Assembly (NCBI RefSeq): GCF_056746865.1
Contig: NZ_JBWKMP010000004.1
DNA length: 64,000 bases
Strand: one strand, 5' to 3'
From: a plasmid
The notes beneath the pieces are model-generated. The model did no database searches, had not been told where the DNA came from, and was given only the letters and a program-made list of their open reading frames with translations. A program made the translations under genes and the position numbers. Positions 2,802-28,842 of the stretch are shown here, piece by piece (within the stretch, counting starts at the first letter, position 1; each line of letters begins with the position of its first letter).

Positions 2802-3134
2802 ATGGAAAGAGGGGAAATCTGGCTTGTCTCGCTTGATCCTACCGCAGGTCATGAGCAGCAGGGAACGCGGCCGGTGCTGATTGTCACACCGGCGGCCTTT
2901 AATCGCGTGACCCGCCTGCCTGTTGTTGTGCCCGTAACCAGCGGAGGCAATTTTGCCCGCACTGCCGGCTTTGCGGTGTCGTTGGATGGTGTTGGCATAC
3001 GTACCACAGGTGTTGTACGTTGCGATCAACCCCGGACAATTGATATGAAAGCACGGGGCGGAAAACGACTCGAACGGGTTCCGGAGACTATCATGAACGA
3101 AGTTCTTGGCCGCCTGTCCACTATTCTGACTTGA
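2802..3134 (+). CDS. pemK: PemK toxin (MazF-like endoribonuclease)
   Basis: ATG at 2802 gives 110-aa MERGEIWLVSLDPTAGHEQQGTRPVLIV... ; track ORF 2670-3134 contains it in frame. Confidence 0.9.
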   Translation: MERGEIWLVSLDPTAGHEQQGTRPVLIVTPAAFNRVTRLPVVVPVTSGGNFARTAGFAVSLDGVGIRTTGVVRCDQPRTIDMKARGGKRLERVPETIMNEVLGRLSTILT

Positions 3135-3327
3135 ACATGGGGTTTGAGGGGCAACTGGATGAAAACGTACGATTTAGGGCACTAAAACCGCTGTTGTCCC
3201 ACCATTCTGGTGATTCCCAAACGTTATTTGGCTAAAAAGTAGTTTTGATGTGGTTTATTTTCCGAATTCCAAGCGCAGCCCTACTTTCTTGTGCGTATTT
3301 GCGTGTTTTGCGCAGTTTTGAAGTTCC

Positions 3328-3800
3328 GGTGATGCTGCCAACTTACTGATTTAGTGTATGATGGTGTTTTTGAGGTGCTCCAGTGGCTTCTGTTTCTATC
3401 AGCTGTCCCTCCTGTTCAGCTACTGACGGGGTGGTGCGTAACGGCAAAAGCACCGCCGGACATCAGCGCTATCTCTGCTCTCACTGCCGTAAAACATGGC
3501 AACTGCAGTTCACTTACACCGCTTCTCAACCCGGTACGCACCAGAAAATCATTGATATGGCCATGAATGGCGTTGGATGCCGGGCAACCGCCCGCATTAT
3601 GGGCGTTGGCCTCAACACGATTTTCCGCCATTTAAAAAACTCAGGCCGCAGTCGGTAACCTCGCGCATACAGCCGGGCAGTGACGTCATCGTCTGCGCGG
3701 AAATGGACGAACAGTGGGGATACGTCGGGGCTAAATCGCGCCAGCGCTGGCTGTTTTACGCGTATGACAGGCTCCGGAAGACGGTTGTTGCGCACGTATT
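3328..3800 (+). mobile_element. IS1, 5' portion (IRL + insA + start of insB), truncated
   Basis: begins GGTGATGCTGCCAACTTACTGAT (IS1 IRL); InsA ORF 3383-3658; ends where a Tn3-family IR begins at 3801. Confidence 0.85.
3383..3658 (+). CDS. insA: IS1 InsA
   Basis: 91-aa [43 protein letters not shown]... Confidence 0.85.
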
Positions 3801-4392
3801 GGGGTCTGACGCTCAGTGGAACGAAAACTCACGTTAAGCAACGTTTTCTGCCTCTGACGCCTCTTTTAATGGTCTCAGATGTCCTTTGGTCACCAGTTCT
3901 GCCAGCGTGAAGGAATAATGGCCGAGCATATTGATATGTCCGTGGCAAAGCGGGGAGAGGCGTGCGATATCTTCATCATTCAGTGTTTCACCCTGCGCCC
4001 GGAGATGATCCAGGGCTGCCTGCATATAAATAGTGTTCCATAACACGACGGCGTTAGTGACCAGCCCCAGTGCGCCCAGTTGATCTTCCTGACCGTCGGT
4101 ATATCGTTTTCTTATCTCACCTTTTTGACCGTGACAGATGGCTCTGGCAACGGCATGGCGACTTTCTCCCCGATTAAGCTGGGTCAGAATGCGCCGGCGG
4201 TAATCTTCATCATCAATATAATTAAGCAGATACAGCGTTTTGTTGATGCGCCCCACTTCAATGATTGCCTGAGTCAGTCCGGAAGGACGTTCACTTTTCA
4301 GCAATGAACGGACCAGCACTGAAGCCTGTACTTTGCCCAGCTTCAGGGAGCCAGCGGTCCGGATCATTTCGTCCCACTGAAGGACTATTTTT
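3801..4392 (-). mobile_element. Tn2/Tn3-type transposon end: 38-bp IR plus 3' end of tnpA, truncated by IS26
   Basis: GGGGTCTGACGCTCAGTGGAACGAAAACTCACGTTAAG at 3801-3838; minus-strand frame encodes TnpA C-terminus ...LAELVTKGHLRPLKEASEAENVA. Confidence 0.8.
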
Positions 4393-5212
4393 GGCACTGT
4401 TGCAAAGTTAGCGATGAGGCAGCCTTTTGTCTTATTCAAAGGCCTTACATTTCAAAAACTCTGCTTACCAGGCGCATTTCGCCCAGGGGATCACCATAAT
4501 AAAATGCTGAGGCCTGGCCTTTGCGTAGTGCACGCATCACCTCAATACCTTTGATGGTGGCGTAAGCCGTCTTCATGGATTTAAATCCCAGCGTGGCGCC
4601 GATTATCCGTTTCAGTTTGCCATGATCGCATTCAATCACGTTGTTCCGGTACTTAATCTGTCGGTGTTCAACGTCAGACGGGCACCGGCCTTCGCGTTTG
4701 AGCAGAGCAAGCGCGCGACCATAGGCGGGCGCTTTATCCGTGTTGATGAATCGCGGGATCTGCCACTTCTTCACGTTGTTGAGGATTTTACCCAGAAACC
4801 GGTATGCAGCTTTGCTGTTACGACGGGAGGAGAGATAAAAATCGACAGTGCGGCCCCGGCTGTCGACGGCCCGGTACAGATACGCCCAGCGGCCATTGAC
4901 CTTCACGTAGGTTTCATCCATGTGCCACGGGCAAAGATCGGAAGGGTTACGCCAGTACCAGCGCAGCCGTTTTTCCATTTCAGGCGCATAACGCTGAACC
5001 CAGCGGTAAATCGTGGAGTGATCGACATTCACTCCGCGTTCAGCCAGCATCTCCTGCAGCTCACGGTAACTGATGCCGTATTTGCAGTACCAGCGTACGG
5101 CCCACAGAATGATGTCACGCTGAAAATGCCGGCCTTTGAATGGGTTCATGTGCAGCTCCATCAGCAAAAGGGGATGATAAGTTTATCACCACCGACTATT
5201 TGCAACAGTGCC
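4393..5212 (-). mobile_element. IS26 (copy 1, 820 bp)
   Basis: 14-bp terminal IRs GGCACTGTTGCAAA at both ends; internal tnp26. Confidence 0.95.
4445..5149 (-). CDS. tnpA: IS26 transposase Tnp26
   Basis: 234-aa [31 protein letters not shown]... Confidence 0.95.
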   Translation of the reverse strand: MNPFKGRHFQRDIILWAVRWYCKYGISYRELQEMLAERGVNVDHSTIYRWVQRYAPEMEKRLRWYWRNPSDLCPWHMDETYVKVNGRWAYLYRAVDSRGRTVDFYLSSRRNSKAAYRFLGKILNNVKKWQIPRFINTDKAPAYGRALALLKREGRCPSDVEHRQIKYRNNVIECDHGKLKRIIGATLGFKSMKTAYATIKGIEVMRALRKGQASAFYYGDPLGEMRLVSRVFEM

Positions 5213-19489: not shown

Positions 19490-22126
19490 CTACAACGGCA
19501 GGGAGAACGAGGCGGTTTCGAGCGATTCTCCCTCATTCAGCCTGTTCTGCATGTCGCTGACGAAGGCATCCATCTGACTGTTGGCAAAGAATTTAATCCC
19601 GACCAGCCTGACGTCCTCATTTTCATCAATCACAATGCGCTCCCTGTCATTCAGCGTTTCCAGCATCTGCTCTTTCCATGCGTCATCCAGCAGCCGGTCA
19701 TCCCCCTTTGGCTCAAGGAACACCTGCCAGTAAGTGTTGTCCGAATGGCGCGTCAGTATCATGATGAAATCCGGCATAAACCCGCGCACGCCGCCGAACT
19801 CCGTGAGTTTAAAGCGCGTTGACTGCTCGTCGTTACGCAGTACGTAAATGTCGTCGTAACGCGCTTTCAGCTTCGGCATGAATGCTTCCAGCGTTTTCAC
19901 AAGGCGATGCTCAAGCTGGTTCAGTATCGCGTTATCGTACACGTACCATTTTTTACCGATGGTCGGTGCGGTGGTGATTTTCTGGTTAATGACCACCGAC
20001 GGGTCAATGTGCAGGCTGTAGTCTTTAATCACCTCCTTCACCGGCTGGCTGATAAAGCGGTACGTGCCTTTCACCTTCTGGTCATTGCGGCGTATGTTCT
20101 CTGAGATGCGCAGCAGCACAGTTTCCAGCAGGTGCAGTTTCTCTTTTGCCGGTACAGAGGAGAAATCCAGTGACTGCGGTACGGTGACGGTGATTTTTAG
20201 CTTGCCAAGATAGGCGTCACTGCGAATAAACTCACGGATGCCGGTCAGTTTCGGGAAGAAGCGTTGCAGGTTATCCAGCGCGTAGAAGCTGATCCTCTGC
20301 ATCGCCTTGCGGTAAAAACGCTCGTCCAGTACCAGGGGTTCCGGTTTTGTTATGACTGCCGTTGCGCCCGTCAGGTTGTCCAGCGACTCCTCACCGGCGG
20401 TCTGATACGGTATCTCAAAGCGTGTTTCCAGCGAGTAGGTTTCCCAGCGCCGGCTGCTGCTCTCAATCTCTTCCACTTTGTTGAAATACAGCTTACCCGT
20501 CTGATAGACCGTGGATTTCTTGAAGTCTTCTTTCAGTCTGGCGTGTTCAATCGTGCCGCTGCCATCCTGATGCACGTCAATGTCCGCCTGCTCTAATGAT
20601 GCGTGCAGCGTTTTTATATAAGCTGGTTCATTGATGGTGTGATAGTGCAGTTGCTCCAGCACACTCAAATCTTTCGCGCTGTTATCAAACCGGCGGGTGA
20701 AGCTGCGCTTACCGTCATAAACGAACGGGTAGTAACGCGCACCACGCCCGATAAGCTGCGCCTCGCTGTCCGTGCCGGTTTTGCTGCTGCTCGCCTGCTC
20801 GCTGATGCGGACAATGTCGTAGAGGTTGAGCACGTCCCAGCCTTCGTTGACCTTCGCCACGGCAAAGACGGCTCTCACCGGATTATCGATGTTTTCCAGT
20901 GTGTTCAGCAGGACGGGGTTTTCTTCCAGCAGGTCTGACTTGTTGACGTTCAGCAGGTTGAAGTCGTTAAAGTCTTCCTGAATCTGTTGGATAACCGTCA
21001 CTAAATCGCTGTCAGCGTAACGCTGAATCACTTTGTGCCAGATACTGGTGTCAGAGCTGAGCTGTACTCTTTTGTTCGCCAGGTGGCGTCTGACGCTCTC
21101 AGGCGTCATTGCCGCAATCAGTTGCGAAAACTCCTCCTGCTTCGCCTTTGATATCGCAATCTTGTTCGACTTGAACAGAATGACCGGCTTGAAGCCGGTG
21201 ATGCCGTTATCTGCTGCTGTCAGTTTACGGTACTGGCTTAACAGTACCGCATCGAGCATCTTGTCACCGTCATTCTGGTTGGCTTCCAGCAGCATGACTT
21301 TCTTCGAATAGCCGTCTGACATGAACTGCTTCAGGTCATACTGATAAACCACTTTGTCACGGTATTTTTGCCCGATATCTTTATTTGCCAGGTCAATGGT
21401 GGCGGTGAACTCGAACAGCCGGTTATCCGGTCGCAGGTCGAGGATGTTCTCAATCGTGCGTTCCCAGGTCTGCTCCTCGTTCTCCGGTGAGGTTTTCGAC
21501 TTTCCTCTGGCTTTGGTGCCGGCGTTGAAGTGATGCGCCTCGTCACCAAGCAGCACAAGCGGAATTTCCTTCAAATCCTCGTAGGTGATGCTGTTCTCAC
21601 GATAGCTGTTCAGCTCATCGTGCATCTTATGGATGGTTGAGAGCTTAAGGTAAATCGTGTTGCGTTCCGGTACGGACGGGAACGTCTCCACCGGTGCGAT
21701 GGTGATTTTTTCCCCGTCGATTTCCAGCTCCTGACTGAACAGGTACTTCGGCGACTGCGGATTCAGCAGGTTCTCACGGGTTTTCTGGATAATCGCGTCG
21801 GTATGCACGAAGAAGATAAAATTCTGATACCCGTACTCTTTAAACAGATAGAGTATCGTCCCCGCCATCACCATCGTTTTCCCTGCACCGGTTGCCATGT
21901 GAAACAGCAGATGACGGTAATGCAGCAGCGCCTCTTCACGTTTACGCTGCGTGTAATGCAGGTAACGCAGTGCACCGTGCTGATACGGACGCAGGGCATC
22001 CTTCAGATTCGCCTGAATGTAGTCCGGCGTCTGGTAGTTATCGTGGAACAGCCCCGGTTCATCAAATTGCTTCAGCTTGTTAAACAGCAGCTTCTCGCTG
22101 CCGGCTGAGGTCGGTTTCTTCGCCAT
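19490..22126 (-). CDS. res: Type III restriction endonuclease subunit Res (SF2 helicase + nuclease)
   Basis: 878-aa ORF with Walker A (MATGAGKTMV), DEAH box (LLGDEAHH); 4 bp downstream of mod. Confidence 0.85.
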   Translation of the reverse strand: MAKKPTSAGSEKLLFNKLKQFDEPGLFHDNYQTPDYIQANLKDALRPYQHGALRYLHYTQRKREEALLHYRHLLFHMATGAGKTMVMAGTILYLFKEYGYQNFIFFVHTDAIIQKTRENLLNPQSPKYLFSQELEIDGEKITIAPVETFPSVPERNTIYLKLSTIHKMHDELNSYRENSITYEDLKEIPLVLLGDEAHHFNAGTKARGKSKTSPENEEQTWERTIENILDLRPDNRLFEFTATIDLANKDIGQKYRDKVVYQYDLKQFMSDGYSKKVMLLEANQNDGDKMLDAVLLSQYRKLTAADNGITGFKPVILFKSNKIAISKAKQEEFSQLIAAMTPESVRRHLANKRVQLSSDTSIWHKVIQRYADSDLVTVIQQIQEDFNDFNLLNVNKSDLLEENPVLLNTLENIDNPVRAVFAVAKVNEGWDVLNLYDIVRISEQASSSKTGTDSEAQLIGRGARYYPFVYDGKRSFTRRFDNSAKDLSVLEQLHYHTINEPAYIKTLHASLEQADIDVHQDGSGTIEHARLKEDFKKSTVYQTGKLYFNKVEEIESSSRRWETYSLETRFEIPYQTAGEESLDNLTGATAVITKPEPLVLDERFYRKAMQRISFYALDNLQRFFPKLTGIREFIRSDAYLGKLKITVTVPQSLDFSSVPAKEKLHLLETVLLRISENIRRNDQKVKGTYRFISQPVKEVIKDYSLHIDPSVVINQKITTAPTIGKKWYVYDNAILNQLEHRLVKTLEAFMPKLKARYDDIYVLRNDEQSTRFKLTEFGGVRGFMPDFIMILTRHSDNTYWQVFLEPKGDDRLLDDAWKEQMLETLNDRERIVIDENEDVRLVGIKFFANSQMDAFVSDMQNRLNEGESLETASFSLPL

Positions 22127-22130
22127 GCCG

Positions 22131-24179
22131 TCACTCCATTCCGTAGAAGCTGCGGGTAAAGGCTTTATCGCTCTCTGAAATGTTCAGGTCACTGTCATCC
22201 ATATCGGAAGCGTTCACATAGAGCTGATTTTTATCGAGGATTTCAATCAGCAGTTGCTTCTGCTCATGCAGTTCCAGTTCGCTGAAGGCGACTTTACGGA
22301 AAATACCATCCACTTCGTACTCAGCCGACAGCACGTTCTCCAGTGCCACCTGATAGTTGAGATGTGCCTCTGTTTTCATCACGGCAAAGAGCTTTTCGAG
22401 TTCTTCAGTGGACTGCGCTTTCTGTATTTCATGCACAAAGTAGGCGTTCAGCTCCATCAGTTCAGCGTAGACAAAGCTGCCGCCACCCTGCCAGTTGATG
22501 TCTTTTGAGATCCCCCCCTGTTCACCTCCGATGACTTTTTGCAGGCGTGGTACCGTTATGTCGTTGATGTAATCCATCTGTTCAATACCAATGTAGCGAC
22601 GCCCCATCTTATGGGCTACTGCTGCGGTTGTTCCGCTACCTAAATGAAAGTCTAAGATTAAATCGCCTGCCTTTGTAGATAGCTCTATGACCCTTTTAAT
22701 TAACAACTCTGGTTTCTTTCCGTTTTCGAAACTTACATATCCACCTTCTTTATTTAAATTGTTATATTGGATGTCATCCCATAAGGTATTTATTTTCTGC
22801 ATGTAGTTATAACTTTCACCATTTTTCTCCAGCATGTCGGATAGGAACATAAACATATCTTTATTGCTGGCGTTGTAGAATATTTCAACTGGCGTTCCTT
22901 TGTTTTTCCCTTTTAATGGTGTGTACTCTACGCTAACAATGCCATTATTTATTTCTTCTAGTTCTTTTAGAACTCGGCCTCTGACACTGGATTGTGCATT
23001 TGTTGTTCTATAAACAATCCCTGCATAGTCTTTATATACGTCGTTTTCACTTATGCCTTTTTCTTTTGAAAATCTAGATATGGAGGTGGTTTTGGCATAG
23101 GGGTAGTGATTGTAAGTAACTCCATCTTCACTTTTTATGGGCGTTTTTGCACCTAAATCTAAGAGTATTTGAGTGTATTTCCAGCTCTTACCGCTATCCT
23201 TGTATTCATTTACATACTGAATTACCTCTGTTTTTTTGAAAACAGGGTTAAGCATGGCAAGTTCTTTTCTTTTCGAATATAAAATTATAAATTCAGTTGC
23301 ATCTCTTAAGCTTTTTCCTTCCGAGCTTCCAGATACACCACCTATCTTTGTTTTTATTGTTATAATATTGATGAAGTTTTCTACACCAAATATGTTATCC
23401 ATTAACACCTTCAAATGGAATAACTCGTTATCATCACATTGTATAAAAATAAACCCATCATCTGATAATAATTTAAGTGATGTTTCAAGCCTATTTTTCA
23501 TGAATGTTAACCACGTGGAGTGGTTAAATCTATCATTATATTTAAAGCTATCGGAACCAGTGTTATATGGAGGGTCAATATATATTAACTTTACCTCGCC
23601 TTTATGGGGGGTTATTAATGAATTAAGGGCAATTAAGTTATTTCCTTTGATGATTAAATTATCACTTTGATCAAAGTAAGATATATTGTTTTGTGCACCA
23701 TTTTTTGTATGTCGTTTAACATTAGTGAATACCTTTGGAGAGAAAAGTCGATCAATCTCATCACGAGCAATGATTTCATTGTAATAAATCTCATCTTTCC
23801 CCTGATTTTCTTTGGTCATTCCGCCTTCAAGAACACAATCCTTAAAAGGAAAGTCCAGCACCACATCAGAGCTGTAATCAAGGTATTTCCCTTCACTGGT
23901 TAATCCCACCTTGTTCCGGTATTTAGTGAAGCTGTTCGCCCAGTATTCTTTGTATTTAAGAAATTTGCATAAATTATCAAAATCAAAAATAAAAATTCCG
24001 TCTATATCCGTACCGTAAACAGCGCGGATTTTTTCATTCGCCACCAATGCCTTGATAAGGTCTGGCTGCTTTTGACTGATAGCGTCACTCACCATTGAAC
24101 GTTGTAATTCCTCTCCGTTCCAGAACTGCGGGAATGCTTTTAAAACCTTGTTAAGTTCTTTTATTAATTCTGTCTGCAT
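22131..24179 (-). CDS. mod: Type III DNA methyltransferase subunit Mod
   Basis: 682-aa ORF with DPPYN motif (LIYIDPPYNTGSD) and C-terminal AdoMet motif (FHLGSGTTAAVA); strongly AT-rich central segment (likely target-recognition domain). Confidence 0.85.
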   Translation of the reverse strand: MQTELIKELNKVLKAFPQFWNGEELQRSMVSDAISQKQPDLIKALVANEKIRAVYGTDIDGIFIFDFDNLCKFLKYKEYWANSFTKYRNKVGLTSEGKYLDYSSDVVLDFPFKDCVLEGGMTKENQGKDEIYYNEIIARDEIDRLFSPKVFTNVKRHTKNGAQNNISYFDQSDNLIIKGNNLIALNSLITPHKGEVKLIYIDPPYNTGSDSFKYNDRFNHSTWLTFMKNRLETSLKLLSDDGFIFIQCDDNELFHLKVLMDNIFGVENFINIITIKTKIGGVSGSSEGKSLRDATEFIILYSKRKELAMLNPVFKKTEVIQYVNEYKDSGKSWKYTQILLDLGAKTPIKSEDGVTYNHYPYAKTTSISRFSKEKGISENDVYKDYAGIVYRTTNAQSSVRGRVLKELEEINNGIVSVEYTPLKGKNKGTPVEIFYNASNKDMFMFLSDMLEKNGESYNYMQKINTLWDDIQYNNLNKEGGYVSFENGKKPELLIKRVIELSTKAGDLILDFHLGSGTTAAVAHKMGRRYIGIEQMDYINDITVPRLQKVIGGEQGGISKDINWQGGGSFVYAELMELNAYFVHEIQKAQSTEELEKLFAVMKTEAHLNYQVALENVLSAEYEVDGIFRKVAFSELELHEQKQLLIEILDKNQLYVNASDMDDSDLNISESDKAFTRSFYGME

Positions 24180-24365
24180 GTCATGACCTTATGACTGTTT
24201 AATATCTGAATGATTGTAAGATATAGCGTCCGGCGCTGGAACCCGACAGCGATGAGTTGAATTCAGTTGCGGGAAAATGCACCAGAATAAGTGGTATTTA
24301 ACATAAACTCTCTTACGCGCACCACCCGAACACCACTCACCACGAAAACACGCCGGAACACGTAA

Positions 24366-24442
24366 AAGGGGTCCGTTTGGGAAACGGACAATATTGTACG
24401 GCAAGCCTGTTTTTTGAACAGGCCAAATCATCGCAGTAGGGT
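24366..24442. repeat. 77-bp hairpin-containing segment (copy X) upstream of mod
   Basis: AAGGGGTCCGTTTGGGAAACGGACAATATTGTACGGCAAGCCTGTTTTTTGAACAGG...; inverted copy at 26891-26966. Confidence 0.8.
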
Positions 24443-24631
24443 ACGCCCTTTGTAGGTGCCGTCTTCGATGTGAGAAAGAGCGTCCAGCGATACCAGGCCC
24501 GAGAACAGCGTGAACTGCCGCAATGAGCTTTTGTATGCGTGGGTAACTATACCGCGCACTTCACGCGCGGTGCTCGGTTTTGAGGCCGAAAATTGCAGGA
24601 TCTCAAAGACGTGGTGTAGGGCTAGTGCCAT
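24428..24631 (-). CDS. small hypothetical protein (67 aa)
   Basis: ORF with AAGGA 6 nt upstream of ATG; last gene downstream of the uncharacterised cluster; no recognisable motif. Confidence 0.3.
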   Translation of the reverse strand: MALALHHVFEILQFSASKPSTAREVRGIVTHAYKSSLRQFTLFSGLVSLDALSHIEDGTYKGRTLLR

Positions 24632-24673
24632 GGGGCGTCCTTAAAATAAAGCCCCATAGCATGAGCAGTGTCG

Positions 24674-25081
24674 TTAGTCGTTAAACTCGCCATCTCGCAG
24701 TTGGCGATTGCCTTCAACAATTTCCCACGCACGATTTAACCCTTCACGCATCAGATCGAAAGTACAGTCGCGGTCGTTAGAATAGGCGCCGACAAAAATG
24801 ATGTATTCCATTTCAGGTTCGCCGAACTCAGGCGAGCAGCCAAAGTTATGGAAAGCCGCCTGCCATTTGCCATTGTTCTCATTCGGCATGTGGAAAAGCT
24901 GCATTGGACGCTCATTAGGTGAGAATTCTACAAAGCTCGCTGAACTACCTGCGGATAAGCCTACTCTGGAATGCCCATCAAAAAAGTAATTATGGGCACA
25001 TCTGATACCTTCCACATAGATCACCCGCCCATCTGGCAGCTTTTTCAGGACCAGGTACACTTCACGACGCTGAATACTCAT
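24674..25081 (-). CDS. hypothetical cytoplasmic protein (135 aa)
   Basis: ORF with AGGAA RBS 5 nt upstream of ATG; no signal peptide; no family recognised. Confidence 0.5.
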   Translation of the reverse strand: MSIQRREVYLVLKKLPDGRVIYVEGIRCAHNYFFDGHSRVGLSAGSSASFVEFSPNERPMQLFHMPNENNGKWQAAFHNFGCSPEFGEPEMEYIIFVGAYSNDRDCTFDLMREGLNRAWEIVEGNRQLRDGEFND

Positions 25082-25152
25082 TTTTATTCCTGTAGTTATG
25101 GGTAGCAGTGGAGAGTAAGAATGACCCCAGCCGGTGCCAAGGCCAAAGAACT

Positions 25153-25695
25153 TTAGCCAGCCAGGGAAAGGGCTTCTGCGATGGCTCGGTTGAACTCGGG
25201 GATCGCCTCATCGTAAGACATTCCGCCGCAGGGATGCTTGACGCAAGCCCATGTTACCGGCAGTTCCGGTAAGTGATCCCACATCTGATAGCCCAACACC
25301 AAAATGACATCGGGCCTCAGCTCGGCCACCACTTCTTCAAGCACAGTAGCTGCATCACGCCACATAGCACGCGTGGGACGTATACGGCCAGCATCGCCCA
25401 CAAACTCCTGAACGTAGTTGTAGAAGGCTACATGCTGCCAGGCTTCACGCCGTTCCTCTGCGGTCGGCTCGTCAGTTGTGCCTCGTAGCAGATTGGTGGC
25501 TATCGTGAAAAAACGAAGCCCTGGCTGGAAAGCATGCTCGTTAATAACGTGCTGGGTAAAGTCAGGGGCGTAGTCTTCCGGTTCACCATAGTGGGACTCA
25601 CCCAACACCATAACGCGGACGCCGTAGCGGCTTGAGTGATAATGGTCACCCACCCAAGGCTGAAATTTCACGCTGGAATTAGTTGCTGTTTGCAT
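25153..25695 (-). CDS. hypothetical protein with uracil-DNA-glycosylase-superfamily-like motifs (180 aa)
   Basis: N-terminal VMVLGESHYGEP resembles the UDG water-activating loop (GQDPYH) and C-terminal VKHPCGGMS resembles the HPSPLS motif; start overlaps upstream gene by 17 bp. Confidence 0.45.
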   Translation of the reverse strand: MQTATNSSVKFQPWVGDHYHSSRYGVRVMVLGESHYGEPEDYAPDFTQHVINEHAFQPGLRFFTIATNLLRGTTDEPTAEERREAWQHVAFYNYVQEFVGDAGRIRPTRAMWRDAATVLEEVVAELRPDVILVLGYQMWDHLPELPVTWACVKHPCGGMSYDEAIPEFNRAIAEALSLAG

Positions 25696-26128
25696 ACGTT
25701 ACATTCTCACACTTTGCATCACTGATGGGCATGGACGCATTATAAATATCCTCAAGTGCCAACGTTACCTCGCTTTTGCGCAAGATGGCGTCCCGCAGCA
25801 TCGTCAATCGGAAGTTAGAGCCTTTCCAGTAATACTCTTTGTACTTGTCATCTGCGACGAAACCGCCTTCTCGATGGCGTTCATACACGATAGGTGGCAT
25901 GCCCCCTTTGTCGGACGGGTGAAGCTCCAGCCAACGCTCATATTTTCCGTTCTCGTAGATTGTCAGCCGCTGCGCTGGGTCGGTCAACTTACCCCCGTCC
26001 AGCACCCACCGGCACATCATTGACGCTATTTCTTTTGCTGCGGGATCTATGGTTGATGGGGTGCCAGCATTAGCCTGGTAGGCCATAAGAAACGCCGCGG
26101 ACATAATGAGTGTGTGGCGTAGTTTCAT
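25679..26128 (-). CDS. hypothetical exported protein (149 aa, Sec signal peptide)
   Basis: N-terminus MKLRHTLIMSAAFLMAYQANA; AAGGGA RBS; 10 bp after upstream lipoprotein gene. Confidence 0.55.
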   Translation of the reverse strand: MKLRHTLIMSAAFLMAYQANAGTPSTIDPAAKEIASMMCRWVLDGGKLTDPAQRLTIYENGKYERWLELHPSDKGGMPPIVYERHREGGFVADDKYKEYYWKGSNFRLTMLRDAILRKSEVTLALEDIYNASMPISDAKCENVTYANSN

Positions 26129-26138
26129 GAGAGATCCC

Positions 26139-26678
26139 TTAGTTCAGATTGCATCCAATGCGGAAGGCATTGCCGATTTCAGTGTATTCAGCACGGCTTG
26201 CGCCCGTGAGCTTAGTGGCTTCACTGCTGAAGTGCGTATTGTCGCGGGTGCATTTTTCTGGCGTGGATTGCGCGCCTTTGAGGCACATAGAGTACGCAAC
26301 AGACGGATTAGCGAACTGGGTACGCTGGGCGTAGCCTTCGCACACAGCAGTTGCACGGGCCTGCTTCTGGCGCGCGGTCATCGGTTTGATTGCCTTACTA
26401 TTGGCAGCCTTCAGCTTATAGCAGCTCAGATTACGCGAGCGGGCAGCTGCCTCTAGGGCTTTTGAGCGGCTAAGATTGTCGTTGTATTCAGGATGGCTGG
26501 ATGGGTTAACATTCAGGCTCGGCTGTATCGCGTCAGATGCCTGGCAAAGTTGCTGATCGCTGTATCTGGCAATCTCCGCTGCCTCTATCGCGGCTTTGTC
26601 TGGATGCGGGGCTTTGGGTGCGGGAGTAGCGCATCCTGCTAATGCCAGCGCCAATGAGGCGGCTAATAGTCGTTTCAT
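26139..26678 (-). CDS. hypothetical lipoprotein (179 aa, lipobox LAGC, multiple Cys)
   Basis: MKRLLAASLALALAGCATPA... signal with lipobox; several cysteines suggesting periplasmic disulfides. Confidence 0.55.
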   Translation of the reverse strand: MKRLLAASLALALAGCATPAPKAPHPDKAAIEAAEIARYSDQQLCQASDAIQPSLNVNPSSHPEYNDNLSRSKALEAAARSRNLSCYKLKAANSKAIKPMTARQKQARATAVCEGYAQRTQFANPSVAYSMCLKGAQSTPEKCTRDNTHFSSEATKLTGASRAEYTEIGNAFRIGCNLN

Positions 26679-26890
26679 GGGTTCGAGTGCCCTGTATGCA
26701 AGTTGTAGAAGGGATCAGTTTAGAGATCGGAAATTATTGTACGTTCAGCGCGGTATTTAACCACTAATACCCGTAACGGATTGATTTAGAGCCAGTGGCT
26801 ATCGCTTTTAAATTATCGCCTAATCAGTATCGCATTTAGGTTATCCGATTAGCCAAAAACCGCGGAAAACGTCGTATAGCGCGGGAGTTC

Positions 26891-26966
26891 ACCCTACTGC
26901 GATGATTTCGACTGTTCAAAAAACAGGCTTACCGTACAATATTGTCCGTTTCCCAAACGGCCCCTT
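26891..26966. repeat. inverted copy (X') of the 77-bp hairpin segment
   Basis: reverse complement of 24366-24442 with a few mismatches. Confidence 0.8.
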
Positions 26967-27040
26967 AAATCTTCTCCGCTCCAAAATTGCGGAAACGCTT
27001 TTAAAACCTTGTTCAGTTCTTTGATTAATTCGGTCTGCAT
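26966..27040 (-). pseudogene. partial duplicate of mod 5' end (first ~22 codons) with diverged copy of mod promoter region upstream (27041-27240)
   Basis: encodes MQTELIKELNKVLKAFPQFW identical to Mod N-terminus, then fuses to X'-derived sequence (48-codon frame 26894-27040); upstream 200 bp is ~80% identical to 24180-24365. Confidence 0.7.
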
Positions 27041-27325
27041 GTCATGGCCTTATGACTGTTAGAGATTGAAATGATTGTAAGGTATCGCGTCCAATGCTGG
27101 AACCTGACAGTAATGCTGCTGATACAATTGCGGAAAAATGCACCAAAACAGGTGGTATTTAACATAAGGGATCTTACGCGCACCACCGATCAGGTACTCA
27201 CGACGAAAACACGTCAAAACGCGCAAAACAGCCTGTTTTCTGCCCCCAAAATTGGCTGTTTTTGTGTTGCCGGTTTGTTATCAAAACGACGGATATGATT
27301 TCAGCCAGCAAACGGGCTGAAACCT

Positions 27326-27782: not shown

Positions 27783-28022
27783 TCAGAACCGTCCGTATTT
27801 AGCTAAAATTTTCTCTAGCGTGGCTCGTTGTTTTTGGGTCAGCCATGTAAATGAGTCGTTGAGATCGTGCTTGCTTTGCATATCGCTTAGAAATTTAGCC
27901 TCAAAGCTAGTGAGCTGGATTTTTGCGGTCAGTGCATCGTGTAGTGTCTTTTTAAGACCGTTATGCAATTGACTGTCTTGCGTGCTGTTTGTCACCGGAA
28001 TGGGCGTTCTTGTTGTTTTTTC
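27783..28022 (-). pseudogene. 3' end of an unidentified gene truncated by IS26
   Basis: frame runs into the IS26 IR at 28023 without a start codon; ends ...QKQRATLEKILAKYGRF. Confidence 0.35.
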
Positions 28023-28842
28023 GGCACTGTTGCAAATAGTCGGTGGTGATAAACTTATCATCCCCTTTTGCTGATGGAGCTGCACATGAACCCATTCAAA
28101 GGCCGGCATTTTCAGCGTGACATCATTCTGTGGGCCGTACGCTGGTACTGCAAATACGGCATCAGTTACCGTGAGCTGCAGGAGATGCTGGCTGAACGCG
28201 GAGTGAATGTCGATCACTCCACGATTTACCGCTGGGTTCAGCGTTATGCGCCTGAAATGGAAAAACGGCTGCGCTGGTACTGGCGTAACCCTTCCGATCT
28301 TTGCCCGTGGCACATGGATGAAACCTACGTGAAGGTCAATGGCCGCTGGGCGTATCTGTACCGGGCCGTCGACAGCCGGGGCCGCACTGTCGATTTTTAT
28401 CTCTCCTCCCGTCGTAACAGCAAAGCTGCATACCGGTTTCTGGGTAAAATCCTCAACAACGTGAAGAAGTGGCAGATCCCGCGATTCATCAACACGGATA
28501 AAGCGCCCGCCTATGGTCGCGCGCTTGCTCTGCTCAAACGCGAAGGCCGGTGCCCGTCTGACGTTGAACACCGACAGATTAAGTACCGGAACAACGTGAT
28601 TGAATGCGATCATGGCAAACTGAAACGGATAATCGGCGCCACGCTGGGATTTAAATCCATGAAGACGGCTTACGCCACCATCAAAGGTATTGAGGTGATG
28701 CGTGCACTACGCAAAGGCCAGGCCTCAGCATTTTATTATGGTGATCCCCTGGGCGAAATGCGCCTGGTAAGCAGAGTTTTTGAAATGTAAGGCCTTTGAA
28801 TAAGACAAAAGGCTGCCTCATCGCTAACTTTGCAACAGTGCC
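28023..28842 (+). mobile_element. IS26 (copy 2)
   Basis: 820 bp with GGCACTGTTGCAAA IRs. Confidence 0.95.
28086..28790 (+). CDS. tnpA: IS26 transposase Tnp26
   Basis: 234-aa [10 protein letters not shown]... Confidence 0.95.
   Translation: MNPFKGRHFQRDIILWAVRWYCKYGISYRELQEMLAERGVNVDHSTIYRWVQRYAPEMEKRLRWYWRNPSDLCPWHMDETYVKVNGRWAYLYRAVDSRGRTVDFYLSSRRNSKAAYRFLGKILNNVKKWQIPRFINTDKAPAYGRALALLKREGRCPSDVEHRQIKYRNNVIECDHGKLKRIIGATLGFKSMKTAYATIKGIEVMRALRKGQASAFYYGDPLGEMRLVSRVFEM

Follow-up and report, generated by a model that had tools for sequence, protein, structure and literature searches.

Within a plasmid-borne stretch of 64,000 nucleotides (NCBI RefSeq assembly GCF_056746865.1, contig NZ_JBWKMP010000004.1; this whole stretch is called the window below), five short minus-strand open reading frames (ORFs) lie directly beside the genes of a Type III restriction-modification (R-M) system, which raises the question whether these genes form one operon and one defence system tied to R-M, or came to stand together, and next to the R-M genes, by another route. 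An earlier note, made from the sequence alone, inclined to the first answer: it took positions 24443-26890 for an operon of uncharacterised genes, encoding a lipoprotein, a Sec-exported protein, a 180-amino-acid (aa) protein with motifs reminiscent of the uracil-DNA glycosylase (UDG) fold, a 135-aa protein and possibly a fifth, 67-aa protein, situated in a captured mobile segment under a duplicated copy of the promoter of the methyltransferase gene mod. We found that the whole array is carried by a 2,598-bp non-autonomous transposable unit of the Tn3 family. That this unit came to lie beside the R-M genes by chance, and that its genes are independent morons including a stand-alone defence glycosylase resembling the Brig proteins, is the reading that we favour and to which we give about even confidence.

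The unit spans positions 24368-26965 and was recognised as a recurring block with constant ends. The same 2,598-bp block, with the same ends and different flanks, is present in plasmid pPSS-12_3 (L014; 99.96% identity) and in the IncN plasmids NZ_CP151772 (L031; 99.5%) and CP066261 (L032; 97.9%), and in two of these a perfect direct repeat of 5 bp stands on either side of it, TATTT in pPSS-12_3 and TAGTA in NZ_CP151772. Because the block keeps its ends at different flanks and is accompanied by 5-bp direct repeats, we conclude that it moved as a whole by Tn3-family transposition, which places the genes in a mobile segment, as the earlier note had proposed. The flanks in the window read TAAAA and TAAAT, and no perfect target duplication is present there. 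The unit ends read GGGGCCGTTTGGGAAACGGACAATATTGTACGGTAAG, a Tn3-family terminal repeat, and the interval 24443-26890 is exactly what separates two 74-nt inverted repeats, of which the first (I1, 24369-24442) is 95% complementary to the second (26891-26964); the earlier note had chosen this interval without identifying the repeats as ends of a transposon.

One end of the unit is formed by a complete TIME (Tn3-derived inverted-repeat miniature element) on the minus strand at 26711-26965, with its left inverted repeat (IRL) at 26965/4 and its right inverted repeat (IRR) at 26711. Over its full length of 254-255 bp this element matches MITESen1, a 256-bp entry of ISfinder, at 81% identity, the reference sequence being taken from Table S2 of Gomi and Yano 2026 (PMC13367494). 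The other end is a 75-bp fragment from the IRL end of the same TIME in inverted orientation (24368-24442, plus strand), which aligns to MITESen1 positions 1-75; apart from 26891-26964 and the inverted 24369-24442, the window contains no further copy of this IRL. The complete element shows what characterises TIMEs of the MITESen1 group, namely a length between 50 and 500 bp, no transposase, Tn3-family terminal inverted repeats of ~38 bp and end-to-end similarity to MITESen1; its termini are of the type GGGG...ACGGTAAG, that is, GGGG...TAAG-type ends. Copies about 80% identical to 26705-26969 occur in ~780 plasmid records, in unannotated DNA, and one TIME copy interrupts a DUF6710 gene in the IncN plasmid pMG334. 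Two other candidate identities for 26705-26969 were rejected: a single-strand promoter (Frpo/ssi-type) or CUP repeat, with single-stranded DNA fold z-scores of -1.1 and -0.5, and a structured RNA, for which Rfam gave no match; the region is the TIME.

TIMEs and TIME-COMPs are known to mobilise cargo on plasmids, and no resolution site has been recognised in MITESen1 (PMC13367494). The unit resembles the TIME-COMPs described for IS101, TIME244 and MITESen1 (Szuplewska 2014; Gomi and Yano 2026) in being plasmid-borne and free of a transposase, in its Tn3-type terminal inverted repeats with an inverted arrangement of the ends, in its movement with 5-bp target-site duplications (TAGTA, TATTT) and in its insertion in the IncN DUF6710 region. 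A TIME-COMP has two complete TIMEs bracketing the cargo, however, and since one end of the unit consists of the 75-bp IRL portion alone, we call it TIME-COMP-like rather than a strict TIME-COMP. It further differs in that its TIME is a variant ~81% identical to MITESen1, and in that its cargo consists of hypothetical genes, unlike the antibiotic-resistance cargo of described TIME-COMPs. A Tn3-family transposase supplied in trans would move the whole block and thereby generate the 5-bp target duplications. In both IncN carriers an ISPa38-like Tn3-family transposase gene or fragment (L031, 1-2626; L032, 4572-4727) lies at most ~2 kb from the TIME end of the unit and may have supplied the transposase by which the unit moved.

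The recurrence of the unit bears directly on its R-M neighbours. As the earlier note had recognised, these constitute a Type III system: mod (22131-24179, minus strand; PADLOC MTase_III, E=1.1e-251) and res (19490-22126, minus strand; PADLOC REase_III, E=1.3e-240) encode a Mod methyltransferase followed by a Res helicase-nuclease, and both lie outside the 2,598-bp unit. The same unit occurs in the IncN plasmids and in pPSS-12_3 without mod and res, so that the adjacency in the window is an insertion accident and the supposed association of the array with R-M is not supported.

The five genes themselves are real. All five ORFs are present on the minus strand, RefSeq calls each of them a hypothetical protein, and compared with orthologues in three other backbones every gene has a ratio of nonsynonymous to synonymous substitution rates (dN/dS) of 0.11-0.22, which is why we take them to be genes beyond chance ORFs. 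The stop of the lipoprotein gene (26139-26678) and the start of the gene for the 149-aa Sec-exported protein (25679-26128) are separated by 10 bp (26139 to 26128), the latter gene overlaps the gene for the 180-aa protein by 17 bp, and the gaps further downstream measure 71 bp and then 42 bp. Searches of NCBIfam, PADLOC and PHROGs with all five proteins returned signal-peptide noise only, and papers on pHN7A8/pE80-type plasmids, in which the genes are part of an IS26 segment, label them accessory or hypothetical, nothing more. The description of a set of closely spaced, uncharacterised genes is confirmed by these data.

The 180-aa cytoplasmic protein (25153-25695, minus strand) carries the motifs LGESHYG, FYNYVQEFVG and HP[SC]xG, and belongs to a family of more than 357 proteins in which VLGESHYG and HPCGG, the two stretches earlier likened to UDG loops, are the most conserved blocks. 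Among 40 aligned family members, which come from several phyla, G32, E33, S34, Y36 and H154 do not vary, and conservation of H35 and P155 is 90% or higher; the dN/dS of the gene is 0.11. An AlphaFold2 (AF2) model built on the 40 homologues has a pLDDT of 94.7 and a pTM of 0.90, and all significant Foldseek matches of this model are UDG-superfamily enzymes. It predicts an alpha/beta/alpha sandwich with a four-stranded parallel sheet that matches solved UDGs, with LGESHYG after strand 1 (residues 28-32), N93 on strand 2 and HP[SC]xG after strand 4 (residues 148-152). In the model the protein thus has the UDG-superfamily fold, as the earlier note had suggested, and the residues G32-E33-S34-(H35)-Y36, N93 and H154-P155 are predicted to sit at positions like those of the UDG catalytic loops.

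By sequence comparison the relationship is far more distant. Pfam gives for the 180-aa protein only a match to UDG at E=0.014, PDB sequence and profile searches gave no UDG match, and an hhalign comparison with E. coli Mug was not significant and aligned the beta-3 region only. Among the 40 members no cysteine is invariant or nearly so, as would be expected of the 4Fe-4S ligands of UDG families 4 and 5 and UdgX, and the motif is GESHY and not GE[AS]PG. Since the Fe-S cysteines are lacking, we place the GESHY family outside families 4, 5 and UdgX, from which it also differs in having no HMM-level similarity beyond the Pfam match.

Members of the family are found in settings in which they have no fixed partner. 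In the V. cholerae superintegron the UDG-like gene forms a single-gene cassette bounded by VCR repeats, with TIR-domain and AbiH cassettes as its neighbours. On the ColE1-type plasmids NZ_AP027969.1 (2,059 bp) and NZ_CP045946.1 (3,691 bp) a 176-aa homologue (WP_000012591.1, 47% identity to the protein of the window) is encoded by the sole non-backbone gene. The gene stands alone among housekeeping genes in an Aeromonas chromosome and near an HNH_2 protein in an Enterobacter island, and in a prophage-like contig it is a moron that lies, on the opposite strand, between the major-tail gene and the tape-measure gene. The distribution is host-side rather than lytic-phage, with no match in 50,697 deposited phage genomes and matches in 7 of 2.9 million IMG/VR contigs. 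Proteins of the HNH_2 family (PF13391) recur near relatives of the genes studied here, in Enterobacter chromosomes in the order HNH_2, 196-aa protein, UDG-like gene (L010-L013, 5752-8561), near the array in L017 and L019 (~3100-4900) and next to a lone lipoprotein gene in L027 (5411-6646), and may mark a shared defence-island habitat.

Judged by its contexts as integron cassette, ColE1 cargo and prophage moron, the UDG-like gene is autonomous and would work without partner genes. In this respect it is similar to the Brig-type glycosylases, for which a single gene is sufficient: Brig1, which was found by the same structural route, acts alone (PMC11078745), Brig2 is a UDG-like integron cassette (Getz et al.) and Brig3 has been described in PMC13160076. 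The spread of Brig2 homologues over phyla (Pseudomonadota, Bacteroidota, Gemmatimonadota and Planctomycetota), likened by description only, is similar to that of the GESHY family, whereas the GESHY motif, likewise compared by description, is unlike the Y121 and E147 reported for Brig1; PADLOC 2023 gave no match for the UDG-like protein. By analogy, the gene is most likely a single-gene defence glycosylase of the Brig1/2/3 kind. In what we infer of its action, the enzyme would flip out and excise a non-canonical base from incoming DNA, leaving abasic sites that would in turn block replication.

Several observations weigh against this reading. Sequence comparison connects the 180-aa family neither with a characterised UDG nor with families of PADLOC, NCBIfam or PHROGs. 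The UDG-like protein of the window has an isoelectric point (pI) of 5.1 and a net charge of -11, which is unusual for a DNA-binding enzyme, charge not being conserved in the family (pI 5 to 10). Getz et al. assayed seven UDG-like integron proteins, of which one was protective against their phage panel. The 17-bp overlap with the gene of the exported protein, together with the occurrence of the trio of lipoprotein, 149-aa and UDG-like genes in three backbones, leaves room for a functional link between these genes. Finally, a promoter scan of the coding strand found no sigma-70 consensus, either ahead of the first gene or within the TIME.

Among the alternatives, the best survivor is that the UDG-like enzyme serves the mobile element on which it travels, either in repair or establishment, by removing uracil or damaged bases from plasmid DNA that has just been transferred, or in counter-defence, by removing base marks or lesions made by the host. 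The gene is indeed found on plasmids, phage-plasmids and tiny ColE1 replicons, the UDG fold is classically a repair fold and the Aeromonas copy stands among housekeeping genes; however, enterobacterial hosts have Ung and Mug of their own, the active-site motif is unlike those of the uracil-specific families, the integron neighbours are TIR and AbiH defence cassettes, and both the moron position in the prophage and the near-absence from phage genomes speak against it. We regard this explanation as unlikely, though it retains a real share of our belief.

Somewhat less probable still, and in our opinion distinctly unlikely, is that the UDG-fold protein is not a glycosylase, its fold having been reused to bind a nucleotide, a DNA end or a protein, while the cargo as a whole is maybe a silent hitch-hiker in this plasmid. 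The canonical catalytic-loop residues are invariant across the 40 sequences from several phyla, the gene is under strong purifying selection (dN/dS 0.11), and it persists as the only cargo gene of 2-kb plasmids and in an integron cassette, all of which argue against this reading.

Whether the array nevertheless acts as one system depends on how faithfully its genes stay together. The order lipoprotein, 149-aa protein, UDG-like protein is shared by the unit in the window, a 75-kb Citrobacter phage-plasmid-like replicon (L005) and L019, and L022 has a decayed version of it; extended by the 135-aa gene and the 67-aa stump described below, it recurs in a plasmid-like backbone with H-NS, DUF4942, DUF1173 and methylase genes (L019, L020). 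In the Citrobacter replicon two other small genes take the place of the 135-aa gene. In Salmonella phage-plasmid-like contigs (L022/L023, 8443-8544) the UDG-like gene has been reduced to its last 34 codons and the lipoprotein and 149-aa genes upstream are intact, a natural deletion in which the pair persists without the enzyme, and L017 contains the 149-aa gene only. Lone lipoprotein homologues are encoded beside darA/ddrB in a P1-like element and adjacent to the integrase gene in a prophage linked to icd (e14-like); a CRISPR I-F plasmid has another, and in an SSU5-like phage-plasmid the lone homologue lies on the opposite strand. Moreover, for the same two loci the synonymous divergence (dS) of adjacent genes ranges from 0.25 to 1.4, a five-fold difference between neighbours.

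Because gene content varies and dS differs between neighbours, we regard the array as a recombining mosaic of morons and not as a co-inherited machine. Co-occurrence of all components across divergent genomes, by which a multi-gene defence system is recognised, was not found: the components separate, and the UDG-like gene is deleted or absent in some arrays. In the contexts compared, linkage of the four genes is not consistently conserved, and the earlier note's idea of one operon and one system is not supported; a defence-type role stays plausible for the UDG-like gene. The cargo would be a piece, lacking a promoter, of a mosaic array of accessory genes that occurs in enterobacterial phage-plasmids and plasmids, and its genes would be independent morons, that is, an envelope pair, a stand-alone UDG-fold enzyme, a small acidic protein and a truncated gene.

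That the four or five genes would instead form a new defence or anti-defence system of several components, bound in function to the neighbouring Type III R-M genes, for instance with envelope sensors and a glycosylase effector, is very unlikely. The tight spacing with its 17-bp overlap, the gene order common to the unit, L005 and L019 and decayed in L022, and the purifying selection on all genes would suit such a system, but every component is found without the others, the exported pair was retained in L022 where the UDG-like gene was lost, the very different dS values of neighbouring genes indicate independent histories, the unit is without R-M genes in the IncN plasmids and pPSS-12_3, and a possible terminator lies between the trio and the 135-aa gene. 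Slimmer even than that is the chance that the lipoprotein, the periplasmic protein and the UDG-fold enzyme make up an unseen three-part system, in which the envelope would sense or block incoming DNA and the glycosylase destroy it, or, more modestly, that the GESHY proteins constitute a new UDG family, acting on a new class of substrate, which a miniature transposon has carried around the world on epidemic fosA3/CTX-M plasmids.

Both envelope proteins are of the exported type that the earlier note had assigned to them. The 179-aa lipoprotein has the lipobox LAGC, with Cys16, and six more conserved cysteines; all ten full-length homologues with a retained N-terminus (10/10) show the lipobox as L-x-G-C. 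It is predicted to be all-alpha, its AF2 model being helical with a pLDDT of 60-86, and its family counts 12 members in 5.8 billion proteins (dN/dS 0.16-0.18) and has no counterpart in Pfam, NCBIfam, PADLOC or PHROGs. The 149-aa protein starts with a classic Sec signal (MKLRH..., cleavage after ANA) that is kept in homologues, the signal MKLRHTLIMSAAFLMAYQANA being followed by G; it has two conserved cysteines, is predicted to be beta-rich, belongs to a family of 11 members in 5.8 billion proteins (dN/dS 0.15-0.19) and has no Pfam match even at E<=10. In full-length homologues of both proteins the cysteines of the mature part are conserved and the leaders are divergent. An AF2 model of the mature lipoprotein joined by a linker to the 149-aa protein was poor (pLDDT 61.6, pTM 0.33), with helical and beta-rich parts, and gave no Foldseek match with E<0.08. 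The profile and structure searches suggested beforehand have yielded a UDG fold for the 180-aa protein, but no family or fold match for the lipoprotein and the 149-aa protein.

From the context we would guess that this pair, an outer-membrane-type lipoprotein and a periplasmic protein, is an envelope-level moron, for example an exclusion factor. The suggestion is based on the habitat (prophage ends, phage-plasmids and plasmids), the fast-evolving leaders and the disulphide-rich mature parts. Like the superinfection and entry exclusion lipoproteins Cor, Llp, TraT and TrbK, the lipoprotein is small, has a fast-evolving leader and occurs on prophages, phage-plasmids and plasmids; this is a likeness by habitat only, members of its family often being lone or opposite-strand genes, and unlike these proteins it has no sequence or fold similarity to them, the only match being at the level of the signal peptide, to Cor (E=0.054). 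Distant relatives of the cysteine-rich C-terminal half of the lipoprotein (residues ~90-178; 37-49% identity) are encoded on ~96 large Klebsiella, Citrobacter and Enterobacter plasmids, where they are annotated as hypothetical or not annotated; the C-terminal domain is more widespread than the full-length lipoprotein family.

Downstream of the UDG-like gene, directly 3' of its stop, a consensus scan located a terminator-like hairpin on the minus strand (25122-25145) with a 10-pair stem and a T-rich tail, a pattern match only, which possibly ends a three-gene transcription unit. It is followed by the gene for a 135-aa acidic cytoplasmic protein of no recognised fold (24674-25081, minus strand), for which there is no Pfam match and which has 16 matches among 1.84 billion representatives, mostly fragments. 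Its orthologue in L019 is 93% identical, L005 and L022 lack the gene, and its dN/dS is 0.11. The 67-aa ORF (24428-24631, minus strand) does exist, yet it is no complete fifth gene: by homology to the Citrobacter replicon it represents the N-terminus of a longer gene that the IRL fragment of the transposon has truncated, since the first 67 residues of a 171-aa ORF in that replicon (L005, 9205-9720) are 88% identical to it. DNA homology to L005 ends at 24440, two or three bases within the IRL fragment.

At both ends the unit adjoins mod sequences. On one side (26966-27228, minus strand) lies the remnant of a second Type III mod allele, consisting of a promoter region and codons 1-24 with the ATG at 27040; its translation MQTELIKELNKVLKAFPQFWSGEDL matches the Mod N-terminus, and the reading frame ends at the transposon end after codon 24. 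The other transposon end adjoins the intact mod gene, at a segment made up of its promoter region and codons 1-25 (24105-24367, minus strand), and the two segments are 82% identical direct repeats (D1, D2). In NZ_CP098832 and NZ_CP019074 the order HTH (helix-turn-helix) gene, promoter and mod is present without interruption. On the basis of the 82% repeat, the mod stump and these uninterrupted relatives, we consider the flanks to be two different mod alleles at non-equivalent positions, one within mod codon 25 and the other upstream of the promoter. Such unequal flanks would result from an unresolved cointegrate, or from recombination between two related small plasmids each carrying the unit, and on the simplest reading transposition and recombination would have produced the arrangement incidentally. 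Each of the two mod promoter copies is overlapped by a minus-strand ORF, one of 80 aa (24189-24431) and one of 55 aa (27059-27226), which are similar to each other; as genes they were rejected, since they arise from the 82% repeat.

The mod promoter is thus present twice, as had been supposed, but the additional copy belongs to a truncated mod allele, it would be a by-product of the same events, and the 254-bp TIME separates it from the first cargo gene. The cargo retains just 32 bp upstream of the ATG of the lipoprotein gene, and in this plasmid it may be expressed by read-through from the mod stump. If read-through from the mod promoter does drive the cargo, this would be an insertion accident; the copies of the unit in the IncN plasmids and pPSS-12_3 have no mod promoter.

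The window as a whole is co-linear, at identical coordinates, with the E. coli plasmid pECB11 (NZ_KY865321.1), an IncFII/FIA multidrug-resistance plasmid. The five-gene region sits in an IS26-bounded fragment of this plasmid (~18.1-28.1 kb), a piece of a small mobilisable plasmid which contains a relaxase fragment, mobX, the Type III res and mod genes, the five hypothetical genes, an HTH replication-associated gene and the end of a rep gene truncated by IS26. The block would have landed at the 5' end of a Type III mod gene on a small MOBQ/HTH-Rep plasmid, which would later have been captured by IS26 into the IncFII multidrug-resistance plasmid. At the IS26 junction, the truncated MobA-like relaxase fragment (18113-18850, plus strand) gives a PADLOC match to DpdH over residues 1-119 (E=8e-23), which probably reflects a relaxase-like region within that PADLOC model and not a Dpd system. 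At the opposite border, a listed 276-aa ORF (27783-28061, minus strand, entering IS26 at ~28068) is a chimera, its C-terminal 92 residues being the end of a small-plasmid Rep (72% to the Rep of pHFQ3) and the remainder IS26 read in antisense. Plasmid pHFQ3 (NZ_AP023430.1, 5.5 kb; positions 599-830 and 1216-2658) has the same HTH and Rep backbone as the captured fragment, and a MITESen1-like TIME lies directly upstream of its phosphoethanolamine transferase gene, possibly a case of TIME-associated cargo of the colistin-resistance type.

Taken together, the locus is a clean case of a TIME-bounded unit that moves non-resistance cargo, with target duplications in two plasmids, and it adds to recent work showing that genes are mobilised by miniature Tn3 derivatives, which annotation overlooks. 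It also calls for caution in method, as the proximity to R-M genes arose by transposon insertion and is no evidence of shared function. The cargo comprises orphan envelope genes and a member of an uncharacterised UDG-fold family which, by analogy, probably works like the Brig-type glycosylases. If the GESHY family is an active glycosylase, it would add more than 357 members from several phyla to the newly recognised defence glycosylases. A defence glycosylase gene would then be riding epidemic multidrug-resistance plasmids (F33:A-:B- fosA3/CTX-M and IncN), which could affect phage therapy and plasmid ecology.

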